Below, piece by piece: positions 2,240-5,355 of a stretch of 64,000 bases of DNA. The notes below the pieces were generated by a model. That model was not told where the DNA came from and did not search any database. It was given only the letters and a program-made list of their open reading frames with translations. The DNA comes from Escherichia coli (GTDB lineage: Bacteria; Pseudomonadota; Gammaproteobacteria; Enterobacterales; Enterobacteriaceae). A program made the translations under genes and the position numbers. Numbering within the stretch: position 1 is the stretch's first letter; every line of letters begins with the position of its first letter. The stretch is from assembly GCF_001677475.2 (NCBI RefSeq), contig NZ_CP015229.1; one strand, 5' to 3'.

Positions 2240-2330
2240 TTATGTTGCGCTTTACTGAGGAAGAGTATTAGACGTCAACTAGTTTTGCCGACTCGCGCCA
2301 ACTATACTGGCCGCACCCTTCAGGGCGACA

Positions 2331-3086
2331 TCAAGTCGCGCTTGTTACTGCCTTCGCTGTCTTTTTCCTGTAGCTTTCCCCTTTCAGTTCGAACATATAT
2401 CCGTGATGGAGCAGCCTGTCTGCCGCAGCCACCGCCATAGTCTCATCCACGAAGATGCTGCCCCACATGCTGAACGGATGGTTACTGGTTATCACCAGGC
2501 TCCCACGTTCATAGCGATGCGCTATTAACTCGAACAGCACACCCGTTTCGGCACTATCGCGTTTGACATAGCCAAGATCATCCACCACTATCACCCGGTA
2601 GCGATCCAGTTTCAGTAGCAGCTCATTCAGTTTCAACTGAGCTCTGGCTTTACGTAGTTCCTGCAACAGCTCTCCTGCGCTGTAGAACCGGGCCCGGTAG
2701 CCCTGACCTACTACGCCATCCACGATCGCTGCCGCCAGATGGCTTTTCCCCAACCCGCTGGCTCCGAACAGCAGAACGTTTTCTCCTGCATCAACCCAGT
2801 CTGTCGTTTCACAGAGTTGCCGGAACTGAGCTCCATTCAGTTCCGGCACCTGACTGAAGTCGTATTCGCTCAGCGTTTTGGCAACTGGCAACCGGGCCTC
2901 CTTTTTATAACGACGCAGTTTTTCACTCTCGCGCCACAGGAGTTCTTCATTGCATAGCGTCAGAAGATAGCGCGATGGTGTCCAGCCTTCTGCCAGCGCT
3001 CGTTTTTCCAGAGCGTGCCATTCAGCTCCAACTCGTGTCAGGCGTAGTTTACGCAGGCTATGTTCAAGGTGATGGATATTGCTCAC
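2331..3086 (-). CDS. istB: IS21-family IstB helper ATPase
   Basis: 251 aa; Walker A GASGLGKSH and Walker B VIVVDDLGY; overlaps the istA stop by 4 nt. Confidence 0.9.
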   Translation of the reverse strand: MSNIHHLEHSLRKLRLTRVGAEWHALEKRALAEGWTPSRYLLTLCNEELLWRESEKLRRYKKEARLPVAKTLSEYDFSQVPELNGAQFRQLCETTDWVDAGENVLLFGASGLGKSHLAAAIVDGVVGQGYRARFYSAGELLQELRKARAQLKLNELLLKLDRYRVIVVDDLGYVKRDSAETGVLFELIAHRYERGSLVITSNHPFSMWGSIFVDETMAVAAADRLLHHGYMFELKGESYRKKTAKAVTSAT

Positions 3087-4635
3087 TGCGAACCTCCCTT
3101 GCCACGCAGTAGTTGCTCATAACTGCTCAGGTTATGCTGTATCACATTGACTACCGGCAACGCCTTTTCTTTTATACCCAGGAAGCGCATCAGCCGGTGC
3201 AGATCCACGTTTCCCGGGGTATTCAGCATCTGCTCCATACCTTTTGCCACGACTGAGATATCGTCGTATCCTGCAGCCAGTTTCAGGGCATGTACCATCA
3301 GCCTTCCTGCCATATCGGGCTCCAGATGATTACATAAGCGACGCCACAGCCTCCGCCATTCATCGTCCGGCAGGATGTCATTTCTCAGCGTTGCATGGCA
3401 GAACGCACCGGGCTTTTTTGCCAGACTGTCGATCACATGTCGGAAGTCGATACGACGGGCCCGCGTCTTCCCTTTTTCTGGTCTGACGCGAGGGCAGCTC
3501 ATGACCTCGCTGCTGCCAACGTAACAGCTCAGACGATCGTCCCATAACCTGACCCGTAACAGTTGACCTACAAGCCGGGAAGGTACGCTGTAGACGACGT
3601 GCTTCACATTGATGGTACTGCTGCGACTAACCCTCACAGTCAGCTCATCATAGTCAGCACTGCGACGAAGCGGCAGCGGTTTCAGATGAAGACGTTCTTC
3701 CTTGACCAGATCCTGATTGTTACGGTTGTGCCGCATAACCTGCTGAGTGATGAAGGCCTGATATTCTTCTATGGTGCTGAAGTCGTTACTGCCCCGCAGT
3801 ATCAGCGCCTGACAGATACGCCTTTTCAGATGTCCGTGGGCACTTTCAACCGAGCCATTTTCGTGGCCCCGACCGGCATTATTGTGTACGCCCTGCATTC
3901 CGTAGTGCTGACAGAGAGTAGCATAACGCTCAGTCAGCTCGCGGCGTCCATTCCGTAGTGCTGACAGAGAGTAGCATAACGCTCAGTCAGCTCGCGGCGT
4001 CCATCTTCGCCCTGTTGTTTCCATGCTGCCCTCAGGCTGTCCGTTTTATGTTCTACCGGCACTCCGCCCAGTTGTCCGAGGGCTTCCTGCAGGCCTTCAG
4101 CCAGAGCAGAGAAGCTCTCACCACCCAGAACAACCCGCATCCAGCTCCAGTGGCTCCATTCCAGACGGAAGTGATACAACTTATGCGCCAACAACTTACC
4201 GGCGATGGTGACAACTACACCTTTCAGTTCAGTAAAGTCCGACAGGCCTCGCAGGCCGGGCTGATGTTGCTGGCGGAACATGACCTCCTGCTCTGTACCA
4301 TACTGTAGTTTCCATTCGCGAACCCGCCGTTGCATTGTTCTTCGAAGGCTGTTGGGGTACTGGCCGGGATATTTATCCTGTAGCATCTCCAGTAGAGTTG
4401 TTGGTGTCAGAGCCGGCCTCTCTTTCAACAGAGGAACAAGCATGCTGTCCCACACAGCTTCCAGAGGATCTTTGCGTGTGCGCCAGTGCCGAACACTGTT
4501 TTTTGCCCACTCTCCTTTTTCGATCCGACGACCAGAACGGACTGAGATACCAGCCTTCATGGCCGAGATATGCTGAGTTATACCTTTCTTACGCTGAGTC
4601 ATATAGTAACTGACCTGAGAAGTATTGAGCGTCAC
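3083..4635 (-). pseudogene. istA: IS21-family IstA transposase, frameshifted
   Basis: track ORFs 3934-4635 (N-terminal 233 aa) and 3083-3898 (C-terminal 271 aa) together equal the intact 499-aa IstA of copy 2; the locus is 53 bp longer than in copy 2. Confidence 0.85.
3899..4004. repeat. perfect 2 x 53-bp tandem duplication inside istA
   Basis: unit TCCGTAGTGCTGACAGAGAGTAGCATAACGCTCAGTCAGCTCGCGGCGTCCAT appears twice here and once in copy 2 (about 47350-47402); bounded by CAT microhomology. Confidence 0.85.
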
Positions 4636-5355
4636 GCCATTTCCTGTTGGATCATGTAAATGACACTCAGGTTACAAAACCGGCCAGAATAATCGGCGCC
4701 AGGCGGACTGAGTTATTGTCGTCTCATAGAAGAGTTTCAGGCTTTTAGTGAGCGTCGAAATAAGGGGCGGTCCAGGCCAAAAACCAAAAAGGATCCATTC
4801 TTATCGCTTGCGCCGGTAAAAGAAGTTTCTCCACATGCGAAGGCACTTGCAGCACTGGCAAAGAACCCAGACCTGCGCGACGGAAATTGCGAGCACTTCG
4901 AGCAGGTTTTCATTTTTGATTACTTCGAACGCAAGCACCCTGACATCTATGAGCTGTTGCATGCAACGCCTAACGGAGGGAAACGTTCAAAAGCAACCGC
5001 CGGGAAAATGAAGGCTGAAGGGCAGAAAAAAGGTTATCCGGACATGAGTCTCGATAAAGCATGCGGTATTTATCACGGCATGCGAATTGAGCTTAAAGAA
5101 CCAAATGGTAAAGCCCCGACGAAAGAGCAGATCGCCTGGATGCGCAGGCTTAGAGAGGAAGGTTACTACGTCGTTCTTGCGTATGGTGCAGAACAAGCGA
5201 TAACCGCCATCCTGGAATACATGAGCCTTAAAAAGGGTGAGGCTATTGAGCATGTATTGAACGGTGACAAGTGGTTGTACGCTACATGAAATAATAAATT
5301 AATTAGTGCATATGTGTTCTTTGATACAGCGCACATTAACATCGGGAGAATAATC

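Follow-up and report, generated by a model that had tools for sequence, protein, structure and literature searches.

Has a mobile element destroyed a nuclease gene at this locus, and could what lies beyond the element still function? The initial annotation proposed that an IS21-family copy splits a VRR-NUC nuclease gene after codon 8. We followed up this proposal in a window of 64,000 nucleotides from the Escherichia coli contig NZ_CP015229.1, to which all positions refer unless P1 is named. Judged from its sequence, the window is a P1-like phage-plasmid, syntenic with P1 from P1 position 76609 through the lox site to 41150. As set out below, it is very probable that ISEc10 transposed into codons 7–8 of pmgM in this phage-plasmid and gave rise to a null allele. 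The locus is organized as follows.

1994–2239, plus strand: pmgL, intact, the upstream gene of the pmgL–pmgM late operon, collinear with P1 pmgL (78602–78847)
2242–2265, plus strand: pmgM 5′ fragment, codons 1–8 (MLRFTEEE), identical to the start of P1 pmgM
2260–2265: left target-site duplication GAAGAG, in pmgM codons 7–8; P1 has a single GAAGAG
2266–4728, minus strand: ISEc10 (IS21 family), 2463 bp, antisense to pmgM
4729–4734: right target-site duplication GAAGAG, a repeat at the IS end
4735–5289, plus strand: pmgM 3′ part, codons 9–192 and the stop, with the whole VRR-NUC domain (about residues 57–184)
4957–5289, plus strand: 110-aa open reading frame (ORF) with a TTG start, PmgM residues 83–192

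Excision of the element restores pmgM

In its interrupted form the frame from ATG 2242 continues after codon 8 with TAT TAG and encodes MLRFTEEEY followed by a stop. When the IS and one repeat were removed in silico, joining 2242–2265 to 4735–5289, a single ORF of 579 nt was obtained, comprising 192 codons and a stop. The split after codon 8 and the continuity of the frame across the excised junction were thus as originally described, but the product is 192 residues long instead of the 190 first given. The restored PmgM is identical to P1 PmgM at 190 of the 192 positions, and the restored region of 1667 nt differs from P1 78073–79739 by 34 substitutions, with no gaps. Of this far-side sequence, only the C-terminal 110 aa (4957–5289) appear in the mechanically generated ORF list, as had been pointed out.

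PmgM contains a complete VRR-NUC domain

To assign the product to a family, we compared it with structure and profile collections. The single PmgM sequence matched psNUC (4QBL) at E = 8.1e-17, and a profile of its homologues did so at E = 5.6e-31 over residues 3–144 of the 145-residue chain, that is, over the whole length. The Pfam model VRR_NUC (PF08774) scored 21.2 bits on PmgM, below its gathering cut-off of 23.8, and PmgM had no match in NCBIfam, so that the assignment to VRR-NUC rests on homology to the PDB entry. Many PmgM homologues carry a precomputed PF08774 match, and PHROG 5702, ‘Holliday junction resolvase’, matches PmgM at 5.9e-27. The earlier assignment of a complete PD-(D/E)xK VRR-NUC domain therefore stands by way of 4QBL, Pfam alone being insufficient.

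Among 23 homologues, with identities down to 38%, E61, D111, E127, K129 and Q140 are invariant and P110 is nearly so. The invariant residues are encoded on the plus strand as follows.

4891–4893: E61
5041–5043: D111
5089–5091: E127
5095–5097: K129
5128–5130: Q140

PmgM therefore has the catalytic E…PD…ExK residues and the glutamine described for psNUC, the active site of which consists of an E-PD-ExK motif and Q102 (PMC4103454). psNUC is a dimer that binds four-way junctions and cleaves them symmetrically, and such cleavage by dimers extends to stNUC and saNUC (PMC4103454). On the basis of this homology, intact PmgM may be synthesized late in infection as a dimeric Holliday-junction resolvase that depends on Mg, and it probably trims branched DNA ahead of headful packaging.

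The inserted element is ISEc10

The element is 98–99.9% identical over its full length to copies that RefSeq calls ISEc10, and in more than 1000 database copies of the IS homology ends exactly at 2266 and 4728. Its length corresponds to the standard 2410 bp plus an internal duplication of 53 bp; other ISEc10 copies examined measure 2410 bp and have the same termini. Since an extra T is present on either side, a 7-bp target duplication is formally possible; the termini TATTAG…CTCATA are fixed by the other ISEc10 copies and by a second copy in the window (copy 2), the target duplication of which, CCTCAC, is unambiguous. The following features were located within the copy in pmgM (copy 1).

2266–2313: terminal inverted repeat, istB-proximal, complementary to the other end at 34 of 48 positions
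4681–4728: terminal inverted repeat, istA-proximal, from sequence comparison of the ends
2331–3086, minus strand: istB, helper AAA+ ATPase, 251 aa, intact (Pfam IstB_IS21, 6.8e-62)
3083–3898, minus strand: istA C-terminal fragment, 271-aa ORF (Pfam Mu-transpos_C_2, 4e-08)
3934–4635, minus strand: istA N-terminal fragment, 233-aa ORF with an out-of-frame tail, from the ORF list and comparison with copy 2
3896–4001: perfect 53-bp tandem duplication in istA (3896–3948 and 3949–4001), with 3-nt CAT microhomology at its edges

The inverted repeats are imperfect (TATTAGACGTCAA… and …TTGTCGTCTCATA), matching at 11 of the first 13 and 34 of the first 48 positions, and the termini are identical in five other ISEc10 copies. 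The ends of ISEc10 are TAT…ATA, unlike the usual TG…CA ends of IS21 itself. Target duplications of 6–7 bp flank three of four independent database copies of ISEc10; the flanks of the fourth, present in two strains, do not match. The genes are consecutive, the start of istB overlapping the stop of istA by 4 nt. Membership of the IS21 family, as first proposed, was upheld by NCBIfam models applied to the copy 2 proteins: IS21_help_AAA scores 266.7 bits (cut-off 200) on its IstB, which differs by one residue from that of copy 1, and transpos_IS21 scores 226.4 bits (cut-off 160) on its intact IstA.

A tandem duplication splits istA in copy 1

The 53-bp duplication, overlooked in the first reading of the sequence, shifts the istA frame and leaves the transposase in two ORFs, whereas in copy 2 both parts form a single IstA of 499 aa. 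The frameshift falls within residues 12–304, to which the NCBIfam IS21 transposase model aligns; Pfam and PDB searches gave no match that would place the DDE catalytic core of IstA. Copy 2 lacks the duplication, as do the ISEc10 copies that match best in 5426 E. coli genomes; the latter all aligned in two pieces with 128 nt spanned. The duplication junction has no exact match in the viral or genome contigs scanned. Of the ORF products looked up by exact sequence, the 271-aa fragment of IstA alone had a match, encoded by three short metagenome contigs; these lack the 53-bp duplication, and istA is broken there by other indels.

The duplication would have arisen by strand slippage, probably later than the insertion, and copy 1 would no longer be able to make its own transposase. 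Copy 1 would accordingly be incapable of autonomous transposition, while the genes of copy 2 are intact; the latter, which is nearly identical and lies in ddrB, could in principle supply transposase in trans. The 53-bp duplication remains the least secure element of the reconstruction.

A second, independent insertion lies in ddrB

The second copy has the following features.

45725–48134, minus strand: ISEc10 copy 2, 2410 bp, in ddrB, in the same orientation as copy 1, with flanks matching ddrB of P1-like phages
46542–48041, minus strand: istA, 499 aa, intact (NCBIfam transpos_IS21)
45790–46545, minus strand: istB, intact (NCBIfam IS21_help_AAA)
45719–45724 and 48135–48140: target duplication CCTCAC

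If the 53-bp duplication is disregarded, a single nucleotide distinguishes the two copies. A matched pair of repeats borders each of them, copy 1 lying between GAAGAG hexamers and copy 2 between CCTCAC hexamers, and because these duplications differ the two insertions are separate events, in agreement with the initial annotation.

The insertion is expected to abolish PmgM

ISEc10 would have landed in the second gene of the pmgL–pmgM operon, duplicating the 6-bp GAAGAG. The promoter, the ribosome-binding site and eight codons would now lie 2.47 kb from the other 184 codons, and translation from ATG 2242 would end after nine residues. We regard pmgM::ISEc10 as null because all five catalytic residues are encoded downstream of the insertion and no in-frame ATG, GTG or TTG occurs from the junction to codon 83, a start that would leave out the first catalytic glutamate (E61).

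Loss of pmgM should be tolerated, since plaques are still formed by P1 after deletion or knock-down of pmgM. P1 pmgM was classed as non-essential by CRISPRi, with a plating efficiency of 0.38, and by a deletion survey (PMC10695390); a further study lists in its supplement a strain with an in-frame deletion of pmgM, and pmgM is outside the five essential genes of that paper (PMC9024508).

With regard to the neighbouring genes, the P1 order is kept throughout: gene 26, LP26/LPpmgL, O26, pmgL, pmgM, PpmgN, Oppp and pmgN. The product of pmgL matches PHROG 54, a DksA-like zinc finger, at 1.6e-12. Mapping of the P1 annotation onto the window places two regulatory sites of the downstream genes beyond the IS, where both are retained.

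5257–5283: predicted promoter PpmgN
5296–5312: predicted C1 operator Oppp

In comparison with P1, PpmgN carries three substitutions (5265, 5268 and 5280), one of which hits the predicted −10, and LPpmgL, O26 and Oppp carry one each, that in Oppp at 5312. In the P1 annotation pmgN and pmgR each have a promoter and an operator of their own; PpmgN and Oppp are the only ones located in the window by transfer, the pmgR promoter being taken from the P1 annotation. Polarity on pmgN through pmgQ, caused by lost read-through from the late promoter, would probably be limited, as downstream genes, including the essential pmgR, would keep their own C1-controlled promoters. An Rfam scan of positions 1–9000 gave no match. 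A consensus scan for promoters and terminators over 1800–5500 returned counts at or below those in shuffled sequence and is uninformative on polarity.

pmgM is intact in most P1-like relatives

The expectation that relatives carry the intact gene at the same position was confirmed: the pmgM locus is collinear and the gene intact in 18 of 19 P1-like phage records and in 488 of 572 PLSDB plasmids. Full-length homologues of the reconstructed ORF, the absence of which would have spoken against it, are plentiful. The 192-aa cluster at 98% identity has 1663 member sequences, and relatives covering 93–98% of the query were found down to 42% identity. Other damaged forms also occur. Phage phi456 has IS1 in a pmgM remnant, P0014 has a frameshifted pmgM variant, and 84 plasmids hold 5′-truncated pmgM remnants.

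ISEc10 and pmgM are both already known, and the pmgM::ISEc10 allele was found in none of the collections searched. ISEc10 is present in none of the P1-type phage records that match the pmgM locus, and a comparison of the IS with the phage collection returned only relatives of 86% identity in Klebsiella phages. The pmgM::IS junction has no exact match in the viral, genome and metagenome contigs scanned. No record containing at least 80% of the interrupted locus emerged when this locus was compared by BLAST with plasmids and E. coli genomes, or when the IS alone and the restored region were compared with phages.

Alternative explanations

The absence of both the pmgM::ISEc10 junction and the duplication junction from all collections searched would fit an assembly artefact, in which a misplaced IS or a duplication due to consensus error conceals a real pmgM and/or istA that is intact. 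This is most unlikely: misplacement would not create, at the exact IS termini, a perfect 6-bp duplication of a sequence that is single-copy in P1, copy 2 bears the same signature with another hexamer, and the 53-bp duplication has identical halves and CAT microhomology at its borders, as slippage predicts. Moreover, the two copies were not collapsed in assembly, because one nucleotide differs between them. We give virtually no credence to the idea that both copies arrived as one composite transposon together with the intervening 41 kb, or exchanged flanks by recombination. They do share orientation, 43.4 kb separates them, and their sequences differ only in the duplication and 1 nt; yet a composite element predicts a matched hexamer at its outer ends only, not at each copy, and collinearity with P1 holds both between the copies and outside them. 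The duplication pattern contradicts the composite transposon.

It is exceedingly unlikely that the downstream remnant represents a working, N-terminally truncated nuclease, expressed from TTG 4957, from an internal ATG or through transcription leaving the IS. The 110-aa ORF does include D111, E127 and K129 of the PD…ExK core as well as Q140, but three invariant residues of the first helix, E61, H62 and Q65, are missing from it, and E61 corresponds in the alignment to the glutamate that opens the psNUC E-PD-ExK site. In addition, no purine-rich ribosome-binding sequence precedes TTG 4957 and no promoter-like site points toward pmgM at the IS end, the one weak site in 3.7 kb being fewer than in shuffled sequence. 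Selection for the insertion, either because it rids a plasmid-borne prophage of a costly late nuclease or because transcription from the istB end alters the gene 26 baseplate operon, is very unlikely. In its favour, pmgM is damaged in phi456 and P0014, and a predicted minus-strand promoter, P26, has its −35 at a distance of 29 bp from the IS end. Against it, the region is collinear in the great majority of plasmids and phage records counted above, and both genes that were hit are non-essential, as neutral survival of random hits predicts; pmgM is so by published work, and for ddrB, too, there is published evidence of being non-essential. It is unlikely, too, that PmgM is under relaxed or negative selection in P1 types living mainly as plasmids, with knock-outs as a recurrent and possibly advantageous loss; the instances to which such a view would refer are ISEc10 here, IS1 in phi456, the P0014 frameshift and the truncated remnants in 84 plasmids.

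Significance of the allele

A simple transposition of ISEc10 that inactivated pmgM remains our preferred reading, and pmgM::ISEc10 is a real but ordinary mutation that opens no new question. Its importance is mainly for annotation: an automatic pipeline would give a 110-aa orphan ORF and a nine-codon stub, missing the dead pmgM, and would list two ‘transposase’ fragments without noting that copy 1 is itself disabled. The allele would constitute a natural knock-out in line with the laboratory evidence that pmgM is dispensable for plaques. Taken together, the copies in pmgM and ddrB show ISEc10 to be actively colonizing the phage-plasmid, and their direct orientation means that homologous recombination between them could lead to the loss of 43 kb of essential phage DNA.

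Comparison with known systems

The interrupted gene corresponds to P1 pmgM (P1_gp086, YP_006552.1; formerly orf83b) and to upf81.2 of P7, and, like them, lies between pmgL and pmgN. Once restored, its product has 192 residues, 190 of them identical in P1 PmgM, and the surrounding 1667 nt are 98.0% identical without gaps. The differences are M171 in place of I and T192 in place of A, both at the C-terminal end, and the break by ISEc10 after codon 8.

When compared with psNUC, the stand-alone VRR-NUC protein of Psychrobacter (Pennell et al., 2014; PMC4103454), PmgM shows whole-chain homology and keeps the E-PD-ExK motif as well as the glutamine, but has an extra lysine/arginine-rich N-terminal region of ~55 residues.

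The element shares with ISEc10 of E. coli chromosomes and plasmids (for example CFT073 and RM9088) the termini TATTAGACGT…TCGTCTCATA, the overlapping istA and istB genes and duplications of 6–7 bp. It departs from the 2410-bp RefSeq ISEc10 in being 2463 bp long, with istA split by the 53-bp tandem duplication.

Finally, in the sequenced P1 strain IS1 lies between isaA and isaB, and mod contains IS5. Like these insertions and the IS1 of phi456, the present one is a host IS that occupies a non-essential stretch of a P1-type genome; it differs from the IS1 and IS5 insertions of P1 types in that ISEc10 belongs to another IS family and occupies another site.

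Reading frame and identity of the interrupted gene

The initial annotation had proposed that an IS21-family element splits a VRR-NUC nuclease gene after codon 8. When 1900-5600 was read and the junctions were recomputed, the ATG at 2242 was found to start MLRFTEEE, and from the ninth codon the sequence is TATTAGACGTCAAC..., with the result that the frame as present in the window reads MLRFTEEEY* and stops inside the element. The last base of the foreign segment is 4728 (end sequence ...TTGTCGTCTCATA). GAAGAG at 2260-2265 is repeated at 4729-4734, and 3' of the second GAAGAG an open frame runs to the stop codon at 5287-5289. 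When 2242-2265 is fused to 4735-5289, a continuous open frame of 579 nt results, so that the full ORF is restored as proposed, with a product of 192 aa rather than 190. As had also been stated, the C-terminal 110 aa (TTG 4957 to 5289) are the sole ORF on the far side in the mechanical ORF list; after the junction, no ATG, GTG or TTG stands in frame before codon 83.

The interrupted gene is P1 pmgM (P1_gp086, 579 nt), and the restored protein is identical to P1 PmgM at 190 of 192 residues. The restored region (1465-2265 joined to 4735-5600, 1667 nt) aligns to 78073-79739 of the P1 reference with 34 substitutions and no gaps, P1 carrying a single GAAGAG where the window has the insertion. Relatives keep the gene at the same position: 18 P1-type phage records match the restored region at full length in a single piece (97.2-99.3% identity), and the locus DNA occurs in 572 PLSDB plasmids, being collinear in 488. 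Protein searches returned a cluster of 1663 member sequences (192 aa, 98% identity), together with relatives at 93-98% query coverage and identity down to 42%, which lie on contigs of 80-100 kb in many Enterobacterales. With an unbroken frame and plentiful full-length homologues, neither of the grounds on which the initial annotation might have been rejected, a broken frame or a lack of such homologues, applies.

Other forms of the locus were also seen. In 84 of the 572 plasmids less than 80% of the query is matched, and a common start at query 514-515 (approximately pmgM nt 266) is seen in the six short matches listed; in one example, pLR-46_1, the pmgM remnant lies among IS30, IS5 and IS903B. 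In phage phi456 (OR339795.1, 2501-3902) an IS1 sits within the remaining part of pmgM, and all sequence 5' of pmgM nt 266 is missing. These matches point to a P1-derived fragment that is widespread and has its breakpoint fixed near that position. Variants elsewhere include a 266-aa PmgM-PmgN read-through fusion, in which the stop codon is lost, and a 161-aa frameshifted form without the PD...ExK motif.

The VRR-NUC domain of PmgM

With Pfam alone the domain is sub-threshold (VRR_NUC, 21.2 bits against a threshold of 23.8, covering residues 100-160 only), and NCBIfam gave no hit on PmgM. The single sequence nevertheless matches PDB 4QBL ('VRR-NUC') with E = 8.1e-17, and with a profile built from 23 homologues the match extends over chain residues 3-144 of 145 (E = 5.6e-31), 4QBN being matched more weakly, in agreement with the complete domain that had been claimed. 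PmgM also matches phrog_2363 over its full length (4e-131) and phrog_5702, 'Holliday junction resolvase' (5.9e-27). 4QBL is psNUC, a stand-alone VRR-NUC protein of Psychrobacter; as a dimer it binds tightly to four-way junctions and cuts them symmetrically, and its active site consists of an E-PD-ExK motif and a conserved glutamine (Pennell et al., PMC4103454). Residues E61, H62, Q65, D111, E127, K129 and Q140 are invariant in the 23-homologue alignment. By homology, PmgM would be a nuclease. The domain spans approximately residues 57-184, all downstream of the IS; the 110-aa ORF starts at residue 83 and therefore lacks the first catalytic glutamate.

Two independent ISEc10 insertions

The element in pmgM (copy 1) is 2463 bp long and ends in imperfect inverted repeats that match at 34 of their first 48 positions. 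A second copy lies in ddrB, which belongs to the darA operon. The features are as follows.

2331-3086, minus strand: istB of copy 1, helper ATPase gene (Pfam IstB_IS21, 6.8e-62)
3083-3898, minus strand: 271-aa ORF, one part of the split istA (transposase gene) of copy 1
3934-4635, minus strand: 233-aa ORF, the other part of istA, upstream of istB
45725-48134, same orientation as copy 1: ISEc10 copy 2, 2410 bp
48130-50346: ddrB N-terminal ORF, 738 aa
44943-45737: ddrB C-terminal ORF, 264 aa

BLAST against 72,556 plasmids and 5,426 complete E. coli genomes returned >1000 copies of the element, 98-99.9% identical among the matches listed and named 'IS21-like element ISEc10' in RefSeq. Their homology ends exactly at 2266 and 4728. 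Five database copies examined (four independent) are all 2409-2410 bp with the same termini as here, and three of the four independent copies have target duplications of 6-7 bp. The family assignment in the initial annotation is upheld by this name and by the copy 2 proteins, which score above cut-off: istA is a single 499-aa ORF (transpos_IS21, 226.4 bits, cut-off 160) and istB is intact (IS21_help_AAA, 266.7 bits, cut-off 200).

GAAGAG lies at either end of copy 1, and CCTCAC at either end of copy 2 (45719-48140 with the duplications). A matched hexamer pair at each copy indicates two simple insertions, as had been proposed, and excludes both the arrival of the copies as a composite transposon and a later exchange of flanks between them.

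The copies differ at one nucleotide once a 53-bp stretch of copy 1 istA, repeated perfectly in tandem (3896-3948 and 3949-4001), is reduced to a single unit. This duplication, edged by 3-nt CAT microhomology, accounts for the whole length difference and breaks the transposase gene into the 271-aa and 233-aa ORFs. Neither copy 2 nor the best-matching ISEc10 copies of the 5426 E. coli genomes have it, and viral and genome contigs scanned for exact matches yielded none; most simply, it would have arisen after copy 1 inserted. It is improbable that the pmgM interruption or the duplication is instead an assembly error, the duplication being the less secure of the two. For IstA, neither Pfam nor PDB returned a catalytic-core match by which the DDE residues could be placed relative to the frameshift.

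Predicted consequences for PmgM and its neighbours

In the P1 annotation, the late promoter LPpmgL and the C1 operator O26 precede pmgL and pmgM. The genes downstream are given a separate predicted promoter, PpmgN (within the pmgM 3' end), and an operator, Oppp, and a further promoter with two operators serves the essential pmgR. The sites located in the window are LPpmgL, O26, PpmgN and Oppp, which together carry seven substitutions, three of them in PpmgN; the pmgR promoter and operators were not among them. The ORFs at the positions of pmgO, pmgP, ppp, pmgQ, pmgR and pmgS equal their P1 counterparts in length. Because of these downstream promoters and operators and the P1-length ORFs, we infer that PmgM is lost cleanly with limited polarity; at most, late read-through into pmgN through pmgQ would be lowered. 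In predicted PpmgN (5257-5283) the −10 hexamer is TACGCT, as compared with TATGCT in P1 (substitution at 5280), and this change together with the loss of late read-through could lower expression of pmgN through pmgQ. In published P1 screens pmgM is scored as non-essential: CRISPRi knock-down gave a plating efficiency of 0.38 (PMC10695390), and the table in that study also cites a deletion survey.

On the other side, 29 bp separate the IS end nearest istB from the −35 of P26 (2208-2236), a predicted minus-strand promoter that faces the baseplate/tail operon (genes 26, 25 and onward), and transcription leaving the IS would run in the same direction. PmgL (1994-2239), for which the annotation gives no more than 'putative morphogenetic function', has a match to PHROG 54, a DksA-like zinc-finger protein (1.6e-12), and shows a CxxC...C...C pattern.

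Comparison with P1-type genomes

The backbone is syntenic with P1 except at 11043-13015, 18636-20344, 25656-30121 and 43527-44647, where there is no megablast match. The third stands in place of the EcoP1 res/mod region, and the fourth holds a 364-aa ORF (43519-44613) where P1 has IS1 and isaB. Long inverted repeats at 55021-59341 (arms of 239-360 nt, 83-87% complementary) are the counterpart of the Cin-invertible tail-fibre C segment of P1 and, at about 89-95%, are more diverged from it than the remaining backbone.

The pmgM::IS junction is absent from IMG/VR, from one genome per GTDB species and from JGI metagenomes, and the phage, plasmid and E. coli collections hold no record of the interrupted locus. 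All its components, P1 pmgM, ISEc10 and the VRR-NUC family, are known and nearly identical to annotated entries. The allele is therefore a new instance and not a new kind. IS elements are familiar residents of P1-type genomes: IS1 and IS5 are present in the P1 strain that was sequenced, and phi456 has IS1 in what is left of pmgM.
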